This document shows, in pieces, positions 1-40,524 of a DNA stretch of 64,000 nucleotides. The notes below the pieces were generated by a model. The model was given only the letters and a program-made list of their open reading frames with translations, made no database searches and was not told the origin of the DNA. This DNA comes from an uncultured Clostridia bacterium (lineage in GTDB: Bacteria; Bacillota; Clostridia; Christensenellales; UBA1242). Each line of letters starts with the position of its first letter. Positions within the stretch are counted from its first letter, which is position 1. The translations under genes and the position numbers were made by a program. Location of the stretch: contig CAKNRR010000002.1 in NCBI GenBank assembly GCA_930990975.1, positions 204-64,203 of the forward strand, read 5' to 3'.

Positions 1-200
1 TTATGTCAAGAAAAAATGAAAAATTTTTTTAAAAATTTTATAATTTTTATTAAAACATGTATAAACAAAAAATATTATCTTTTGTTTATAAACTATAATA
101 TGAAAATAACCATATAAATGCGTCAAATGAATAATTAAAGTCGATACAATAAGCTCATATAGCTTGAAGAAATCAAAATAGTTGTGTTATAATAATTTAT

Positions 201-929
201 ATGAAAGAAAAAATGTGGAATCCTTGGCATGGATGTCATAAATATAGCGAAGGTTGTTTAAATTGTTATATGTTCAAGTTTGATAAAGAGCGTGATATTG
301 ATTCTAACATAGTCTATAAAACAAAGGACTATACGATGCCAATTAAGAAAGATAGGGAAGGATTGTATAAGCTCAAATCTGACTCATGTGTAAATGTGTG
401 TCTGACATCTGACTTTTTTATAGAGGAGGCTGATGAATGGCGAAAAGATGTTTGGAAGATGATGAAGTTTCGTAGCGATGTAAAATTTATTCTTTTCACT
501 AAAAGAGCAAATCGAATAAAATCTTGCTTGCCAGAAGACTGGGGAGATGGTTATCCTAATGTTGGTATAGCTTTAACAGTTGAAAATCAAAAGCGAATTG
601 ATGAGCGCATGCCACTGTTTTTGGAAATAAAAGCTTCTTATAAGATAGCTTTAGTCTCTCCGATGTTAGAAAAGGTAAACATAGAGAAATATATAGAATC
701 AAGCCAAATAGATGAAGTTTCATGCAGCGGTGAAAACTATAACAATGCACGCCCATGTGACTATGAATGGGTGAAAGATTTGTCTGAGCAGTGTAAAAGA
801 AATAATGTTACATTTAAATTTTTTCATACAGGTTCTAATTTTATAAAAAACGGGAAAATCTATCACATTCCATATAATAAAGGAAAAGAACAAGCCCGAA
901 AGGCATATTTAGATTATAAATCAACTTAA
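201..929 (+). CDS. DUF5131 / phage Gp37-Gp68 family protein (three-Cys motif)
   Basis: N-terminus WNPWHGCHKYSEGCLNCY fits the WNPxxGC-x6-C-x2-C signature and the ~240-aa size of the Gp37/Gp68 (DUF5131) family. Assignment is from motif memory only. Confidence 0.65.
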   Translation: MKEKMWNPWHGCHKYSEGCLNCYMFKFDKERDIDSNIVYKTKDYTMPIKKDREGLYKLKSDSCVNVCLTSDFFIEEADEWRKDVWKMMKFRSDVKFILFTKRANRIKSCLPEDWGDGYPNVGIALTVENQKRIDERMPLFLEIKASYKIALVSPMLEKVNIEKYIESSQIDEVSCSGENYNNARPCDYEWVKDLSEQCKRNNVTFKFFHTGSNFIKNGKIYHIPYNKGKEQARKAYLDYKST

Positions 930-1006
930 TTGTTCATAAGCATTAAAGTTCGCTTAAATATTAGCGAGTTTTTGTTAAAATAATTAAAATATGCCGTCAT
1001 TTTTAC

Positions 1007-1034
1007 TTGGCCGGGGGGGGGAGAATGATATAAT
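1007..1034 (+). promoter_or_regulatory. Putative sigma-A-type promoter (TTGGCC / TGaTATAAT) whose spacer is mostly a poly-G tract
   Basis: TTGgcc at ~1007-1012, G run at ~1013-1021, extended -10 TGaTATAAT at ~1026-1034. A GAGGTG RBS (~1051) and TTG start at 1062 follow. Confidence 0.4.
1013..1021. repeat. Homopolymeric G tract (about 9 G)
   Basis: ccGGGGGGGGGag read directly. No other G/C run of comparable length was seen in this AT-rich window. Confidence 0.85.
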
Positions 1035-1061
1035 AATTTTATAATATTTTGAGGTGTAAAA

Positions 1062-3806
1062 TTGAAAAATAAAATAAATGAAAAATTTTTATTAAAGTTA
1101 TTAACATTTATTGTATTTTGTTTCTGTTTAGTAGCAGGAATTTGTTTCTTAGGGAATGATAATTTTCAATTTGATAATACAAGCGCATCGGAAGTTTATG
1201 CAAATATAACAATTAAAGTTCAAGTAAAGCAGCCAGGCTCAAATACATGGAAGAATCAATTATTTCTTAATGATGCCGAAGGCAATGCAGTATATTTTGA
1301 AGGACCGATAGCAAACTTAACAGCAAGTTCTGATGAGGAGTTGTATATAGATGGCGACTAAATAGAGGGATCTAGTGTAAAAAATAAAAGCTATTCAGTG
1401 GAAAGTTCGCTTACTATAAATTTACGAGCACGTAGATGGTCTTTTTTAGACACAAATCTTACTTACAGCGTAGTGGTATCTGCACCTGAAGGTAATCAAG
1501 ATAATAATCTTGAGTATATGGAAGTAGGATATATGGCAGATAGCAAAAATGGGAACTCAATTTCTGATTCTATTGAGGGTTCTGGTAATACAAATAATCA
1601 TACGCTTGAAGTTAATTATAGACCATTAACTCATAAAACAGATTTTTATAATGATTCTACACTTTTAGAAACTATTACTCAAGAAAATTTTGCACATTGG
1701 GTTTTCCCTTCAGAAAATCCGACTAAAACAGGGTATACATTTGATTATTGGTATTTTAGTGCGAAATTAAATTCAAAATCCGTAGTGAAAATGCTAAAAA
1801 ATACACTTGGAACCAACAGAAAAGTTGAAGCTCGTTGGAAAGCCAATACATATACAGTGAAATTTAATGGTAATGGAAGTACAAGCGGAAGGATGAGTGA
1901 TCAAAGTTTCACATATGATACTGCACAAAAATTAACAACAAACGCATTCAAAAAGACGGAATATAACTTTTCAGGTTGGGCAACATCTTCAAGTGGAGGG
2001 GTGTCATATAGTGACGGTCAAAGTGTATCAAATCTTACATCAACAAATGGTGGAGTAATAAACCTTTATGCAGTGTGGAAGCCAAACATATATACAATAA
2101 CTTTAGATAGACAAGGGGCGACAAATGGGTCAAGTTCCGTTACAGCAACATATGGGAGTGTAATGCCATCAATAAGTGTTCCAACAAAGACAGGATACAC
2201 ATTCCAAGGCTATTATACAAGTACAAATGGAGGAGGGACAAAATATTACAATTCCAATGGAACGAGTGCAAGAAATTATGATATAGCGAATAGTACAATC
2301 TTCTACGCCTATTGGACACCAATAAGTTATAGTATAAACTTTGACATAGGTAATAATGGTTCATGGCCAAGTTCATCACCAACAAACAATACTCAATATG
2401 ACACGGCATTAAATGTACCAAACCCTAAATCACCAACAGGCTATACTTTCTCAGGTTGGACAGCAAGTGGCAGCAATTTTAATTCAACAACAGCAAGAAT
2501 AGGGACAAGCACAAACAACTGTAATACTACATGGAATGGGACAACAAAGACAAAGAATACATATTTTAAAAACCTATCATCAACCAATAGTGGGAAAGTA
2601 ACAATGACAGCCAATTATACAGCCAATAGTTACACAGTGAGATTCAATCCAAATGGAGGAACAGTATCACAAACGACAAAGAGTGTAACCTATGACAGCA
2701 CCTATGGAACACTACCAACACCAACAAGGACAGGATATAAATTTACAGGCTGGACACTGAATGGAACAACAATAAGCTCAACAACAAAAGTTCAGACAGC
2801 AAGTAATCATACATTGATAGCGCAATGGGAAGCAAATGAATATACAGTAACCTTTGACCCAAATGGCCAAGGAGGGACAGTAAGTCCAACAACCAAGACA
2901 GTAACCTATGATAGCACCTATGGAGATTTACCAACTCCAACAAGAGCAGGATATATATTTATTGGCTGGTATACAAGTGATAATGGAGGAAGCCATGTAT
3001 TATCAAATACAACAGTAAAGACAGCAAACAATCACTTACTTTATGCCCACTGGCAAGATACATGGGCAAACCATACAGAAGCACCAAGCCTAAGAGTGCC
3101 AAGTAATCCAAACAATGCAAGCAATCCATACATAATCGACACACCAGGGAATTTAGCATGGCTAGCAATGCAAGCACAGATAAAACACTTTAGTGGATAT
3201 TTTGAACAAACAACAAATATAGACTTAAGCGGACATAAATGGCTCCCAATAGGCACAAACACATATTCATTCAAAGGTTTCTATGATGGAAAGGGATATG
3301 CAATCACAGGGCTAGAAACTGCTCCAACAACAAATGTATCCAACTCAACCTCAGTCAACTCCTATGTAGGATTATTTGGGAATACCAACGGAGCAAAACT
3401 TAATAACATTTATATTAAAGGTGCAGACATAAAAGGTCATACAAATGTAGGTGGAATAGTAGGTTATGCCAGCGGTTCAACAGTGCTTACAAGCTGTGGT
3501 TTCAGTGGAACAATATCAGCCCAAGCAAATAGCGGAGCATTGATAGGGAACTCAGCTTCAACCACAGTGCAGATGACAGATTGCATAGTTTTCTCAGCAA
3601 ATGTAGACAAGCTTAACTCAGGCTCAGCAACCACGACAAGCACAGTTTATGTACTTAATGGAAAGAAAGGCTATATAGGCTCAAGCTTTACAAACTGGGT
3701 ATTTGTAAGCGGGATGCCATATCCAGTGCCAAAAGGATTGTCTTGGCTTGCACAAGGAGGCGAACAGGCTACTCTAACCGATATACAAAATTGGGTAAAT
3801 AGTTGA
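1062..3806 (+). pseudogene. Large secreted/surface repeat protein (signal anchor, six Listeria-Bacteroides B-repeats, GLUG-like C-domain) split by one in-frame TAA at 1359-1361
   Basis: Track ORFs 1062..1361 and 1398..3806 share a frame (starts differ by 336 nt). Only one stop plus 12 sense codons lie between them. The hydrophobic signal/anchor LLKLLTFIVFCFCLVAGICFLG is only on the 99-aa piece. The 802-aa piece has no signal peptide and no SD before its GTG. Confidence 0.6.
1629..3060 (+). repeat. Six tandem ~70-aa Listeria-Bacteroides repeat (InlB B-repeat / Flg_new-like) modules, coding
   Basis: Recurrent module ...YTVxFNxNGG...[19 protein letters not shown]...W: [58 protein letters not shown]. 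The last two modules are also similar at DNA level. Confidence 0.7.
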
Positions 3807-3960
3807 TTAAAGATTATTGAAAGTATATATTTTAAAAAGTAATAACTGAGTTTTATCAAAAATAATTGTATGCTAAAATAAACAATTTTGAGTTTTAAAA
3901 GATTTATTATTTTTATATAAATAAATCTAAAAATTAATAATTTGAATGGTCAAAAGGAAA

Positions 3961-3992
3961 AAGGAACAAGATTACGCTTGTTCCTTTTTTTG
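3961..3992 (+). terminator. Rho-independent terminator after the surface-protein gene
   Basis: AGGAACAAG-attacg-CTTGTTCCT followed by a T run. Confidence 0.8.
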
Positions 3993-4108
3993 TTAATTTT
4001 ATTTCTCTTAAAAATCTAAATATAATGATTTTTTCGATAAAACCTCCAAAAATTCTTAAGAACGAATGTGTTATATTGATAATGAGAAAACGAGGAGGTG
4101 AAGAAATA

Positions 4109-4417
4109 ATGCATATAAAAAGTAAACTTTATAACAAAACATTATATGTATTGTTGTGTGGTGAGTTGGATGAGCATTCGGCAACACATGTAAGAATGAC
4201 ATTGGATAATATTTTTTCAAATGGCAACTTTAATCAAATAATTATAGACTTGTCAGAGTTGGAGTTTATGGATAGCACAGGTATAGGGGTGCTTATAGGA
4301 AGATACAAGAGGATGAAGAATAGGAATATACCAATTTTTATTTGTAATCCCTCAAAGCATGCAGAAAAGATTTTTAAAATGACAGGGCTATATGAAATTA
4401 TGCCTAAAATTGTATAA
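4109..4417 (+). CDS. spoIIAA: Anti-sigma F factor antagonist SpoIIAA (STAS domain)
   Basis: STAS pattern DLSELEFMDSTGIGVLIGR. First gene of the spoIIAA-spoIIAB-sigF triad. Start moved to ATG 4109 behind GAGGAGG, because the track start 4025 adds an unlikely extension. Confidence 0.85.
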   Translation: MHIKSKLYNKTLYVLLCGELDEHSATHVRMTLDNIFSNGNFNQIIIDLSELEFMDSTGIGVLIGRYKRMKNRNIPIFICNPSKHAEKIFKMTGLYEIMPKIV

Positions 4418-4427
4418 GGAGAGATGA

Positions 4428-4877
4428 ATGAAAACAAATAATTTTATGGAAGTAACATTTAAAGCTATATCAATAAATGAAAGTTTTGCACGATTGTGCG
4501 TTGCGGGCTTTTGTATTCAGTTAAATCCTTCTATAGATGAAATAGGGGATATAAAGACTGCAGTGTCAGAGGCAGTAACAAATTGTGTTGTTCATGCCTA
4601 TCCAAAACATAATGGAACGATAACACTTAGATGCGAAATTGAAAATGATATTATAAAAATTGTTGTAAAAGATCAAGGAATAGGAATTAAAGATATAGAC
4701 AAAGCAAGAGAGCCTTTTTATACAACAAAGCCGAGTGAAGAACGAAGTGGAATGGGTTTTTCAGTGATGGAAAGCTTTATGGATAAAGTTGAAGTCGAGC
4801 ATAATGGCGATAAGGGGCTTGTTGTCACTATGTATAAGCAAATTATTTCAAGTGAAAAGCAGGTGGGAAATGCTTGA
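4428..4877 (+). CDS. spoIIAB: Anti-sigma F factor / serine kinase SpoIIAB
   Basis: HATPase_c-type motifs EAVTNCVVHAY, DQGIGI, ERSGMGF. Size and position match. Confidence 0.9.
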   Translation: MKTNNFMEVTFKAISINESFARLCVAGFCIQLNPSIDEIGDIKTAVSEAVTNCVVHAYPKHNGTITLRCEIENDIIKIVVKDQGIGIKDIDKAREPFYTTKPSEERSGMGFSVMESFMDKVEVEHNGDKGLVVTMYKQIISSEKQVGNA

Positions 4878-5592
4878 TAATGAGCTTATATTGCTTTTAG
4901 TCAAAAAAGCTCAAAGTGGAGATCAAGAAGCTAAGACAAAATTGATAGAAGAGAATTCGCCATTGATAAAAAGTATTTTGAAGCGATTTAAAGATAAGGG
5001 GGTAGAATATGAAGACTTATACCAAATTGGTTGTATAGGTTTTCTTAAAGCTATCAAGAATTTTGATCCAAGCTTTAATGTCAAATTCTCAACTTATGTA
5101 GTGCCTATGGTAATAGGCGAGATAAAGCGTTTCATGAGAGATGATGGTTCAATAAAGGTTTCAAGGGCGCTTAAGTCGTTAAATTTGCAAATAAACAAAT
5201 ATATAGAAAATGTTTTGTCAAAACAGCAATCAAAGCCCACAATAGAAGAGCTGGCTAAACATTTCAATGTAGAGGAACAAGAGATTGTTATGGCGATGGA
5301 TTCGGCTAAAATGCCTGTTTCAATTTATGCAAAGATAGAAGACGATAGTGATTCAGCAAGCATTATAGATAGAATTGAATCTGAAGAAGATTATAATGAA
5401 AAGATGGTTGATAATATAGCATTGCGAGAAGTTGTAAAAAAGCTTGATGAGAGGGATAGAAAAATAATTTTGCTAAGATATTATTTTGACCGTACTCAAA
5501 GTGAGATTGCAAAAGAATTGAAAATATCACAAGTGCAGGTTTCTAGGTTAGAGAGCAAAATACTTGATAATTTAAAATCTAAGTTGTTATAA
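4870..5592 (+). CDS. sigF: Sporulation sigma factor SigF
   Basis: Sigma-70 regions 2-4: YEDLYQIGCIGFLKAIKNFD, FSTYVVPMVIGEIKRFMRDD, HTH TQSEIAKELKISQVQVSRLE. ATG 4870 overlaps the spoIIAB stop. Track start 4789 is an in-frame upstream extension. Confidence 0.85.
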   Translation: MLDNELILLLVKKAQSGDQEAKTKLIEENSPLIKSILKRFKDKGVEYEDLYQIGCIGFLKAIKNFDPSFNVKFSTYVVPMVIGEIKRFMRDDGSIKVSRALKSLNLQINKYIENVLSKQQSKPTIEELAKHFNVEEQEIVMAMDSAKMPVSIYAKIEDDSDSASIIDRIESEEDYNEKMVDNIALREVVKKLDERDRKIILLRYYFDRTQSEIAKELKISQVQVSRLESKILDNLKSKLL

Positions 5593-5656
5593 CACATTAT
5601 ATAGTATATTGTCTATCATAAATAATACCATATATAAACATTAAATAGGATATTAT

Positions 5657-5689
5657 AAAACCCCTTATTTGTTTTAAGGGGTTGTTTTT
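5657..5689. terminator. Bidirectional terminator between convergent sigF and the lipoprotein gene
   Basis: AAAACCCCTTA-tttgtt-TTAAGGGGTT flanked by an A run and a T run. Confidence 0.7.
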
Positions 5690-5690
5690 G

Positions 5691-7355
5691 TTAATTATAA
5701 AATTTAATTTTATCCATTTTGCCTATAGTTTTTTTATTTGATTGCTCCTTTGAGTTGTTGTCTTTGATTTTATTAAAAGCTATATTGAGTTTGGTTTCAG
5801 AGCTTTTTAAAGAATCTGATTTTATATTTTGATTTGCGCTATTGTTGAGCAAATTGATGCGGAGCTTTTGATCTTTGTTGTTTTCATTTGATAATTTATT
5901 ATTGTCGATGTTTTTGTTGGGTTCGACAATGTTTTTGTTGATAGAAGATTGTGGATTGCTGTCATCTTTTTTGATGATATGCTTAATTAAATTGCTGGCA
6001 TTTTTACTTGTTTCTGCTAGATTACTCCCTCTGTTTTTATGTTTGATATTTTGATTTTTTGGACTGTCTTTTATATTGTCTTTGATCTGATTTTTTGCAG
6101 AGTCCTGTTCAATATTTTGCTTTTCATTATTATTTTGAACAGGTTGATTTTCTAAATTGATTGTGTTTATATAGGCGCCATCAAACTGATTCCCGTTATT
6201 GTAACCATTATTATAATTGTACGGCATATATCTATAGGTGTCAATATTTCTGTTTAACGGATAAAATGAATCGGTATTCCTGTTTGGATTAAATCTTCTA
6301 TTTAAATTGTTTGGATAATATTGATTGTTGTAAGGGTAATTATAAGGATTGAATCTTTGGTTGTTATAGGTCCAATTATTATAATTGCGATTTCTGTAAT
6401 TTTGATAATTATTTGTTAGATTGTTGTTTTGATAGTTGTTTCCTGTATAGTTGTTTTTTGTATATTCATAATTGTAATCAAGTTGTTTGTTTTGGGCTTT
6501 GTTTGTGCTTTGGTCTTTGTTTAAATAAGTGTCGATATTAGATTTTATTCCTGTGTTATTTTTTGTGTCGTTGTTTTCATTATTATTTAAAGTGTTTAAA
6601 TTATTGTTATTTTCATTAAGGTTGTTTGTGTCTTGGTTTTGGTATTGTGGATAATAATTCCAGTCTATGTTTTGCCCATTATTAAAGTTATTGTAGTTAT
6701 TGTAATTGTTGAAATTGTTGTAATTATTGTTAGCGATATTCTCGTTATTTGGTGTATTACTTGTTTGATTTTGTGACGAGTACAATAAATTAGCAACTTC
6801 ACTCATTGTGTTTAAAAGATTATTCAAATATGCCTTTCTTTCGTTCATGATATTAAAAAGTGATTGATAGGCACTTGTCGCTTTTTCGGCACTTAGAGAT
6901 TTTCCTTGAGTGTATTTTTTGATTTGTTTGACATAATTGTCGACATCAGATTTTGAATCACTGATATAATCAGTGTATTTGTCAATGTCGCTTGTCAAAT
7001 TATTCAAAGCTGTTACGGTATCTTTATTTAATTTATATTTTGTTTTGTTTGATTTTAAATAGCTTGACATTGATAAAATGTCTTGTCTAAGATATTCTTC
7101 TTCTAGCATTGTTCTGTATGACAATGATTTTAAATCTTGCAGTTTATTTGCATAGTTGTCGTCGCCGTTTGCGTTGTAAGTGTTTAAATAGCTTACCTGA
7201 GATATTTCATTGTCATCTACTGTATTTACGACATCAGTGGTTTTGTCTAGTTGAGAATTCAAGTTCTTGACAGCTTGAGAGCTGTCATTTGATGAGCAGC
7301 CAGCTAGTGTCAAACAGGACAATAAACATATTGACGAAATAATAACTTTTTTCAT
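5691..7355 (-). CDS. Lipoprotein with very long Asn/Tyr/Gln-rich low-complexity region
   Basis: Signal peptide plus lipobox (CLTLAGC-SS). The structured N-domain is ~190 aa. Several hundred residues dominated by N, Y and Q follow (NNYNNFNNYNNYNNFNNGQN...). Confidence 0.6.
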   Translation of the reverse strand: MKKVIISSICLLSCLTLAGCSSNDSSQAVKNLNSQLDKTTDVVNTVDDNEISQVSYLNTYNANGDDNYANKLQDLKSLSYRTMLEEEYLRQDILSMSSYLKSNKTKYKLNKDTVTALNNLTSDIDKYTDYISDSKSDVDNYVKQIKKYTQGKSLSAEKATSAYQSLFNIMNERKAYLNNLLNTMSEVANLLYSSQNQTSNTPNNENIANNNYNNFNNYNNYNNFNNGQNIDWNYYPQYQNQDTNNLNENNNNLNTLNNNENNDTKNNTGIKSNIDTYLNKDQSTNKAQNKQLDYNYEYTKNNYTGNNYQNNNLTNNYQNYRNRNYNNWTYNNQRFNPYNYPYNNQYYPNNLNRRFNPNRNTDSFYPLNRNIDTYRYMPYNYNNGYNNGNQFDGAYINTINLENQPVQNNNEKQNIEQDSAKNQIKDNIKDSPKNQNIKHKNRGSNLAETSKNASNLIKHIIKKDDSNPQSSINKNIVEPNKNIDNNKLSNENNKDQKLRINLLNNSANQNIKSDSLKSSETKLNIAFNKIKDNNSKEQSNKKTIGKMDKIKFYN

Positions 7356-7488
7356 AGATCCTCCTAATTTTTATTAGTTTGTGCAAGTTAAAGAAAAATA
7401 TACAAAGATATAATTGACTTGTTTGAAGGTTTTGATGTTTAAAATAAATATAAAGAGGGAATAAAAATATTGTACAATAGGAGTTTTC

Positions 7489-7947
7489 ATGGATAATTAT
7501 ATGGACACTAAGAAAAGAAATGAGGCTTATAACCGCTATGTAAAGGCAAAAATACCTCAAACCAAGCCATGGCCAAGCTTATTTAATTCATTTTTGGTTG
7601 GTGGTATAATTTGTTGTATAGGACAAGGAATCAATGATTTGATTTTGCTATGGTTTCCTAATATGGCAGAGCAAAGTGCGTGGGCTTATACGCTCATAGC
7701 ATTAATTTTTATAGCTTCATTTTTGACTGGAATAGGGGTATATGACAAAATAGGTAAATTTGCAGGTGGAGGGTCAATAGTGCCTATTACGGGATTTTCA
7801 AATTCTATAACTTCTCCGGCTATTGAGTTCAAACATGAAGGAATTATTTATGGCATTTGTGTCAAGATGTTTACTATTGCTGGTCCAGTTATTGTGAGTG
7901 GCGTTGTGGCGAGTTTTATAGTTGGTGTTATATACTTATTTATTTAA
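7489..7947 (+). CDS. spoVAC: Stage V sporulation protein AC
   Basis: N-terminus KRNEAYNRYVKAKIPQTKPWPSLFNSFLVGGIICCIGQG plus the multi-TM layout typical of SpoVAC. Lies directly upstream of spoVAD. Confidence 0.85.
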   Translation: MDNYMDTKKRNEAYNRYVKAKIPQTKPWPSLFNSFLVGGIICCIGQGINDLILLWFPNMAEQSAWAYTLIALIFIASFLTGIGVYDKIGKFAGGGSIVPITGFSNSITSPAIEFKHEGIIYGICVKMFTIAGPVIVSGVVASFIVGVIYLFI

Positions 7948-8008
7948 GTTGTTTTTTAAAATGAAGTGCATGCAAAGATAAGGAATAAAGGATTCATATT
8001 TCTAAGGG

Positions 8009-39507: not shown

Positions 39508-40524
39508 ATGGCACTAAAGAAAAAGCTAAGCATAGCAATGCTTATAGTATTGACAATTTTGATAGGTATGTTTTTGATGGCTTGTGATGATAAATCAAGT
39601 CAAGATAATACTCAAGATGAAGAAAATAATGAAAAACCTGTTGACCCAGGAGATAATGGAGATGAAAACAACAAACCACAAAAAGTAGCTATTGAAATTT
39701 CATCTTTTGACGATTTGCTTAGTATGGCTGACAAGTTTGATAGCATTAAAGACAATGAATATTTCTTGTTGACAACTGATATTGATTGTGATGGGCAAAG
39801 CTGGGAATCAGTAGGCAGTCTTAACAATCCTTATAGCTGTGAATTTGATGGTAATGGCTATACAATAAGTAACTTGGTTTTAGCAACAGAAGATTCAAAG
39901 GCAAGCTTTTGGGGAGTTGCTAAAGATTCATATATTCACGATGTAACTTTTTCAAACATAACTACATCTGCAGAAGATTATAGTGAAGAAGGTTTAAATG
40001 TTGGGCTTATAGCACAAGGATATAACGAACTTCAACTTGAGAACATAACATTGACAAGTTCACTTATAACAATCAATGCAAACAATCTAAAGAATTTTGG
40101 TGGAATAATAGCAGAAGACCATTCCACAGGCTTAAGAAAGAATTTGACAGTAAAAGATAGCTCATTCAATATTTCAACAATGGCAGGTTCTAATAATATA
40201 GGTTTAATTACAGGATATAGCACAAATCTAGTAATAGAAGATTGTAAAATAGAAAATATAACTGGTTCAGTATTATATATGGGAAGTGAAGGTTTATCAT
40301 TCGGCTTAATCTCTGGAAGACTTGAAGCAAATGAAACAGACTTATCCCAAGCAAGTATAACAAACTGCGTATATAACATAATAAATATTGAAATATTAAG
40401 TATGACAGAAGAAAATATAAATGTGGGCACAAACATTGGTTATGTTGATGAAAATGCTGTAGTAGAAACAGAAAACATATCTTCAACTGAAACCCAAATT
40501 TTATTCAATGGAAGTGCAATTTAA
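39508..40524 (+). CDS. Lipoprotein with GLUG-like / beta-helix repeat domain, paralogous to the C-domain of the 1062..3806 protein
   Basis: Lipobox IGMFLMAC-DD. FDGNGYTISNL, VGLIAQG, FGGIIAED, IGLITGY, FGLISGR parallel [33 protein letters not shown] in the larger protein. Confidence 0.6.
   Translation: MALKKKLSIAMLIVLTILIGMFLMACDDKSSQDNTQDEENNEKPVDPGDNGDENNKPQKVAIEISSFDDLLSMADKFDSIKDNEYFLLTTDIDCDGQSWESVGSLNNPYSCEFDGNGYTISNLVLATEDSKASFWGVAKDSYIHDVTFSNITTSAEDYSEEGLNVGLIAQGYNELQLENITLTSSLITINANNLKNFGGIIAEDHSTGLRKNLTVKDSSFNISTMAGSNNIGLITGYSTNLVIEDCKIENITGSVLYMGSEGLSFGLISGRLEANETDLSQASITNCVYNIINIEILSMTEENINVGTNIGYVDENAVVETENISSTETQILFNGSAI

Follow-up and report, generated by a model that had tools for sequence, protein, structure and literature searches.

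A surface-protein gene whose reading frame is crossed by a single in-frame stop codon raises the question of whether it is a pseudogene, a gene that can be switched on and off, or a gene whose stop is read through. Such a gene lies at positions 1062 to 3806 of the window, by which we mean the whole 64,000-nucleotide stretch analyzed here, taken from contig CAKNRR010000002.1 of an uncultured Clostridia bacterium (assembly GCA_930990975.1). An initial annotation, made from the window alone, described two open reading frames (ORFs), 1062..1361 and 1398..3806, which lie in one frame and are separated by a TAA and 12 sense codons. It considered a single gene of 914 codons, interrupted by a nonsense codon, the simplest reading, and also raised a second layer of phase variation, translational readthrough, and a stop that is polymorphic in the population. 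We find that the locus is indeed one gene with a nonsense substitution, and that it is very probably an ordinary null allele, or young pseudogene, as opposed to a device for recoding or switching.

The layout of the gene could be verified by reading positions 700-1700 together with the ORF listing. A TTG start codon at 1062 stands 5 nt after a Shine-Dalgarno sequence (GAGGTG, 1051-1056) and opens an ORF of 99 codons, which is closed by the TAA at 1359-1361. Translation shows that this piece contains the hydrophobic stretch LLKLLTFIVFCFCLVAGICFL, with residues 10-30 as the only membrane helix of the gene, as the initial annotation had stated. The 12 sense codons between the TAA and the GTG at 1398 (ata gag gga tct agt gta aaa aat aaa agc tat tca) are followed by the 802-residue ORF in the same frame, such that the translation of 1062-3806 meets one internal stop in 915 codons and the parts add up to 914 codons (99 + 1 + 12 + 802). 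The second piece was likewise described correctly as having no ribosome-binding site (RBS) and no signal peptide: the bases preceding the GTG (aaaaataaaagctattca) hold no purine-rich Shine-Dalgarno match, and no signal peptide was found in the 802 residues.

Whether the two pieces form one gene is decided by orthologues and paralogues. We searched protein databases with the conceptually fused 914-residue protein as the query and obtained two groups, namely proteins that correspond to the second ORF only (789-802 residues, 98-100% identity) and paralogues at 57-80% identity, mostly of about 900-960 residues and in one case of 1134. The 914-residue orthologues were not listed, because they are clustered under shorter representatives, and the distant strains were instead reached through the 90% cluster of the upstream neighbor, a DUF5131 protein (PF07505; window 201-929). 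On metagenome contigs of two of these strains, L091 (5859..8603) and L092 (1413..4157), the syntenic locus, with the shared order DUF5131, gene, spoIIAA/spoIIAB/sigF, carries a single uninterrupted ORF of 914 codons with the same TTG start and the same Shine-Dalgarno sequence, and with AAA (Lys) at the position of the window's TAA. The window gene is colinear with the ORF of L091, from which it differs by only two indels, each of one codon and in frame. Because the syntenic loci carry an intact ORF with AAA, the window holds one gene inactivated by nonsense mutation, and the comparison settles that the lesion is an A-to-T substitution at 1359 (AAA, Lys100, to TAA). All intact paralogues that were read (P0127-P0146) are also single ORFs, each with its own N-terminal hydrophobic anchor, followed by an N-domain that differs between paralogues, a block of B-repeats, and a common C-terminal domain of about 250 residues.

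Gene callers nevertheless annotate 99-residue and 802-residue products in every TAA assembly, as would be expected if a small membrane protein and an 802-residue protein were encoded by two genuine genes. Orthologues split in this manner, each part with its own RBS and signal peptide, would have favored two genes, but the intact orthologue occupies the same locus, the paralogues are undivided, and the second piece has neither RBS nor signal peptide. The initial annotation had also allowed for an assembly error, to be exposed by a read pileup. However, the TAA, together with a run of nine G residues (G9) in the promoter, is present in eight of eight independent assemblies drawn from several ENA studies (window, L001, L082, L083, L084, L085, L086, and L095); because all of them read TAA, the stop is not an assembly artefact. 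Furthermore, an identical 99-residue product is encoded on 33 contigs, and two one-residue variants, also of 99 residues, are found on one contig each. Two genuine genes, or an assembly or sequencing artefact, are therefore hardly credible explanations of the locus.

The substitution, a transversion, lies in sequence without repeats, where the window reads GAC-TAA-ATA and the intact alleles read GAC-AAA-ATA; two more substitutions lie 8 and 10 bases downstream of it. The three differences (window positions 1359, 1367, and 1369; T/A, G/T, and G/A) fall within 11 bp, and the surrounding 100 bp are otherwise identical, which is more suggestive of a multi-nucleotide event or a micro-conversion than of three separate hits. 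AAA is presumably the ancestral state, given the need for a sense codon at this position and the architecture of the family.

The stop is distributed by lineage. Four lineages were seen: TAA is present in the dominant clone and in one recombinant lineage (L083), AAA in another, and a deleted allele in the fourth. A single, widely sampled clone accounts for most TAA carriers; across 8.6 kb, all differences between the window and L001 fall within the gene, and the same applies to L082 and L084. In the fourth lineage (L090 5857-7192 and L093 1310-2645), the locus contains a different N-domain allele, broken into pieces of 196 and 179 residues, and a large internal deletion joins a B-repeat (…YYTSTNGGG) directly to the GLUG-like region (IVGYGSGS…). 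Judging from these alleles, three of the four lineages have a disrupted copy at this locus, and two independent routes led to the disruption. The earlier suggestion that the TAA might be polymorphic in the population thus holds between lineages, where TAA and AAA alleles both exist, but not within the TAA haplotype, where all eight assemblies agree.

Comparison of the alleles along the locus reveals extensive recombination. Within 951-1950, all TAA alleles are identical save for two promoter single-nucleotide differences in L083. The flanks of L083 are diverged by about 2%, whereas the TAA-bearing 1-kb block shows 0-2 differences per 250 bases; at about position 2450, L083 switches to the L091 type, to which it is near-identical from there to 3190. 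L083 is a recombinant, in which the TAA-bearing 5' end is joined to the 3' half of the intact L091-type lineage. The AAA haplotype is distinct, with 27 differences from L083, a TAA type, across 951-1950. Differences between members of the clone take the form of short patches. The larger of the two patches in the window allele (Table 1) is carried by window positions 3326-3470, which are 97.9% identical to the L088 paralogue, compared to 84% for the version of the clone-mates, and suggests that the disrupted copy was, very recently, either the recipient or the donor in a gene conversion. Because this L088-like patch lies within the TAA clone, conversion from paralogues probably continued after the stop arose. 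Secondary lesions have also accumulated on the TAA background: L001 has a 20-bp deletion (2571-2590), the frameshift of which splits the remainder into pieces of 403 and 400 residues, and P0125/L095 has a 39-bp in-frame deletion. Most TAA carriers are otherwise intact downstream, which fits a young allele.

Four points weigh against a simple null allele. First, most TAA alleles have kept the 802-codon frame open. Second, the second ORF of L083 (800 residues) has a dN/dS of 0.38 and only in-frame indels, which alone would suggest constraint. Third, no outgroup with this N-domain that could polarize the AAA/TAA difference was found in the contig, metagenome, and HMMER searches. Fourth, low-level reinitiation at the GTG, 36 nt after the stop, or rare readthrough of the UAA may still occur. 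The open frame, the dN/dS below 1 in the diverged part, and the nearness of the in-frame GTG would also be expected if the gene were functionally expressed in two parts, with readthrough or reinitiation producing some or all of the downstream protein. The constraint on the second ORF of L083 was considered as a sign of function and dropped, since L083 is a recombinant with an intact L091-type 3' half and paralogues donate patches. In our view, the low dN/dS reflects sequence imported from paralogues and from the intact L091-type allele, an attribution that does not formally separate import from constraint.

The other evidence also argues against expression in two parts. UAA is read by both release factors, and it appears to be the main stop codon of this genome, TAA ending 28 of the 38 large ORFs of the window, including full-length pheT, pnp, recN, and recJ. 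The RNA around and after the stop (1335-1470, 136 nt) folds no better than shuffled sequences (z = -0.47), Rfam gave no match in window positions 1-8000, and the window encodes a single tRNA, Leu-AAG, and no suppressor tRNA. There is no Shine-Dalgarno sequence for reinitiation, and a reinitiated product would lack an export signal. The stop is not conserved among orthologues, with AAA in L091 and L092, and L001 tolerates its frameshift deletion. The readthrough proposed in the initial annotation is thus not borne out, and we consider functional two-part expression very unlikely. A bypass of the type known from T4 gene 60 was also considered, as GAC, the potential take-off codon, occurs again in the same frame 90 nt further on; it was dropped for want of any supporting signal and because the intact alleles lack the stop.

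The promoter is a good one of the sigma-70 type, with the G9 tract (1013-1021) at the start of its spacer. This tract is the only run of G or C longer than 5 in the 64 kb (31% G+C), for which about 0.015 would be expected from base composition. The promoters are homologous across the family, comprising the window gene, its alleles, and at least the paralogues L088 and L089, and four types can be distinguished. The TAA allele of the window has TTGGCC as the -35 element and a 16-nt spacer with G9; the intact 914-residue alleles L091 and L092 have TTGACG and a shorter, 13-nt spacer with G4; the intact paralogues L088 and L089 have TTGACG, a 17-nt spacer in which the G run is interrupted (GTGGAGGGGT and GTGAGGGGGT), and TGgTATAAT as the -10 element; and the degraded alleles L090 and L093 have TTGATG and a 19-nt spacer with G9. 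G9 tracts are accordingly present in two different alleles, and the extended -10 element, TGn, is kept in all four promoter types. No variation in G-tract length was seen within the TAA allele, where the eight assemblies, as opposed to individual reads, all have G9. Taken together, the alleles and paralogues show that the G-rich spacer is a length-variable feature of the family. Of the two independent means by which the initial annotation took the locus to be switched off, the stop is borne out, whereas the G9 promoter may be on or off: it retains its extended -10 element, and its 16-nt spacer is longer than that of the intact L091 and L092 alleles.

Promoter phase variation through a homopolymeric tract is known from opc of Neisseria. 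In the fim promoters of Bordetella (fim2, fim3, and fimX), the length of a C-stretch alters transcription (PMC1891110). As in Bordetella fim2/fim3/fimX and Neisseria porA/opc, a long G run lies here between the -35 and -10 elements of a surface-protein promoter, and the spacers differ between alleles and paralogues (13, 16, 17, and 19 nt). Unlike those promoters, however, the present one has the same G9 in all eight assemblies, its extended -10 element may make the spacing to the -35 element less critical, and the stop codon is unconnected to the tract.

G-tract promoters like those of the family are typical of contingency loci, and this, together with the existence of TAA and AAA alleles in related lineages, would be compatible with the stop itself being a reversible switch, gained and lost at high frequency as a second layer of phase variation. 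Of the features that define repeat-mediated contingency loci, the locus has the simple-sequence tract in its promoter but not an ORF lesion made by slippage; the stop arose by substitution of a base that belongs to no repeat, and two further substitutions lie nearby. Moreover, the TAA is constant within its haplotype, no paralogous N-domain is available as a donor for repair, and the AAA alleles, which belong to a separate haplotype 27 differences away, are not sporadic revertants. We therefore regard switching of the stop as highly improbable.

Based on these findings, we propose that the A-to-T substitution at 1359 inactivates one surface-protein gene in the following manner. Ribosomes starting at the TTG would terminate after 99 residues, and the product would consist of the membrane anchor and the first 70 residues, a mere stub, of a domain that extends beyond the stop. 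The other 814 codons, which have neither an RBS nor an export signal, would give no surface protein, and we infer that the full-length protein is absent. The null allele is fixed in the widely sampled clone and has reached a second lineage, with flanks about 2% diverged, through recombination, while the short time elapsed and the ongoing exchange with intact alleles and paralogues would explain why the downstream frame is still open. The gene is one of a family that is mosaic and present in multiple copies; as the copy at this locus has been lost more than once, its loss was presumably tolerated or favored.

If it was favored, for example as an escape from host antibody or phage, the stop could have spread by recombination, with the silenced copy serving as a sequence donor or recipient for expressed paralogues. 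This would extend rather than replace the null-allele explanation. The TAA-bearing block that is common to otherwise diverged backgrounds, the disruption of the copy in most lineages by two routes, and the appearance of a 145-bp paralogue-like patch in a clone with otherwise identical flanks are all in line with it. However, only a single recombinant lineage is involved, neutral recombination with hitch-hiking would give the same pattern, and the conversion could have run in either direction. Silent-cassette systems, in which gene conversion generates antigenic variation, are exemplified by Neisseria pilS and Borrelia vls. As in those systems, a presumably non-expressed copy seems to exchange short tracts with expressed relatives here, but, unlike a classical silent cassette, the locus retains its own full promoter, RBS, and start codon, and it has neither a dedicated expression site nor cassette arrays. 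We consider adaptive loss combined with such an archive unlikely. Somewhat speculatively, the family might as a whole be a contingency-like system that has not been described before, composed of mosaic B-repeat/GLUG-like proteins with interchangeable N-domains, G-rich spacers of 13 to 19 nt that include G9, and frequent conversion, in which the TAA allele was positively selected and spread and the silenced copy acts as a reservoir; we rate this as a doubtful interpretation.

The null allele inferred here is an event of an ordinary, well-documented kind, namely a premature stop in one of several redundant surface-protein genes of a family. The closest parallel is inlA of Listeria monocytogenes, in which natural premature stops, frequent in some lineages but missing from others, lead to a truncated, non-functional product (PMC12427964, PMC11555985). 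In both cases, nonsense alleles of a Gram-positive surface-protein gene segregate by lineage rather than switch. InlA, however, is anchored C-terminally through LPXTG, and truncation releases the protein, whereas the anchor is N-terminal here and the 70-residue stub would stay on the membrane. Furthermore, the phenotypes of the inlA alleles have been tested experimentally, and the present gene is one of several recombining paralogues.

Six stretches of the 802-residue piece match Flg_new (InlB B-repeat, PF09479) with 192.2 bits against a cut-off of 27, the best of them at residues 482-551 of the second ORF. The initial annotation was hence right about six B-repeats; its label of a GLUG-like domain is weakly supported, as the C-terminal 258 residues score 16.5 bits for PF07581 (GLUG), below the cut-off of 20.5 (E = 0.012), and we treat this as a resemblance only. 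No Pfam family matched the 99-residue piece or the N-domain. The latter is an orphan: an HMMER search of 1.84 billion cluster representatives returned, besides its own cluster, a single weak relative, P0274, which aligns straight across the position of the stop and shares the motif Y(I/V)DG.(K/Q)I(E/D).S. P0274 is a 677-residue metagenome protein with three tandem N-domain-like copies in residues 103-364, at 27-31% identity. An AlphaFold model of the fused N-domain, with X at the stop, had a pLDDT of 37.7 and is uninformative on the continuity of the fold across the stop. Genome contigs searched with the post-stop region gave B-repeat matches in unrelated metagenome-assembled genomes only and no orthologue, and a scan of JGI metagenome contigs gave no match.

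Proteins rich in PF09479, some of which also contain GLUG motifs, have been proposed to be adhesins of gut microbes (PMC9723798). The present gene agrees with these adhesin-like proteins of gut bacteria and archaea in its six above-threshold repeats, its multiple copies, and its gut-associated organism; it differs in its orphan N-domain and sub-threshold GLUG region, and its family members have no known binding function. Its product is accordingly predicted to be an N-terminally membrane-anchored, adhesin-like surface protein. The loci of the paralogues are scattered at housekeeping genes (cysS/rpmB, valS/degV, and sigE-sigG/nrdR), no paralogue of the gene is present within the 64-kb window, and one paralogue was recovered from a sample that also yielded a contig with the window's own allele. 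The paralogues read in their genomic context lie at L087 4001-6784, L088 4001-6823, and L089 4001-6691.

For annotation, the 99-residue and 802-residue calls should be combined into one gene that is marked as disrupted, and the 802-residue "protein" of public catalogues is probably never produced in that form. The locus introduces no new mechanism; rather, it offers a clean natural case of lineage-specific loss in a recombining surface-protein family of a gut commensal known from metagenomes, with intact, nonsense, and deleted alleles all available for comparison. The family context, with its variable N-domains, G-tract spacers, and conversion patches, could be that of a contingency-like system and is the part most worth following. 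The features of the locus are collected in Table 1.

Table 1. Features of the disrupted surface-protein gene and its surroundings (window coordinates).
Feature	Position	Strand	Basis
Promoter: -35 TTGGCC (1007-1012), 16-nt spacer, extended -10 TGaTATAAT (TG 1026-1027, hexamer 1029-1034)	1007..1034	+	Consensus scan, 10/12 matches with TG
Shine-Dalgarno sequence GAGGTG	1051..1056	+	Sequence read; identical in intact alleles L091/L092
5' gene fragment: codons 1-99 (N-terminal membrane anchor and first ~70 N-domain residues) and TAA	1062..1361	+	ORF listing, translation
Lineage-specific N-domain, stop inside	1149..1622 (boundaries approximate)	+	Without Pfam family; orphan in HMMER search
Premature stop TAA	1359..1361	+	T at 1359 here, A (AAA, Lys100) in intact alleles; alignment of window, L083, L091, and L092
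Gene remainder, codons 101-914, probably untranslated; holds mechanical ORF 1398..3806	1362..3806	+	Colinear with 914-residue ORF of L091
Six InlB B-repeat/Flg_new domains	1623..3050 (boundaries approximate)	+	Recurring W-x-x-N-x-Y-T motif; PF09479
Small patch, five clustered substitutions specific to window allele	2154..2180	+	Comparison with clone-mates
C-terminal domain common to whole paralogue family, sub-threshold GLUG motif	3051..3803	+	Shared with P0127-P0146
Putative gene-conversion patch with 20 substitutions, most of them at third codon positions	3311..3455	+	Comparison with clone-mates with identical flanks
Intrinsic-terminator-like hairpin followed by T run, downstream of gene	3956..3991	+	Sequence scan

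The surroundings of the gene are partly conserved and partly variable. Because its neighbors include spoIIAA, spoIIAB, sigF, and spoVA, the organism is a spore-former. Between sigF and spoVAC, all related loci keep a gene for a predicted lipoprotein (window 5691-7355, minus strand; 554 residues, lipobox LAGC), which matches no Pfam family and consists mostly of low-complexity repeats rich in Asn and Tyr. On the other side, L090 and L091 have an AIPR-domain gene further upstream of the DUF5131 gene that is absent from window-type loci, so that the neighborhood is variable. Elsewhere in the window, positions 39760-39885, within ORF 39508..40524, gave a weak tblastn match to the C-terminal GLUG-like region (38% over 42 residues, E = 0.001), and this ORF possibly encodes another GLUG-like protein.

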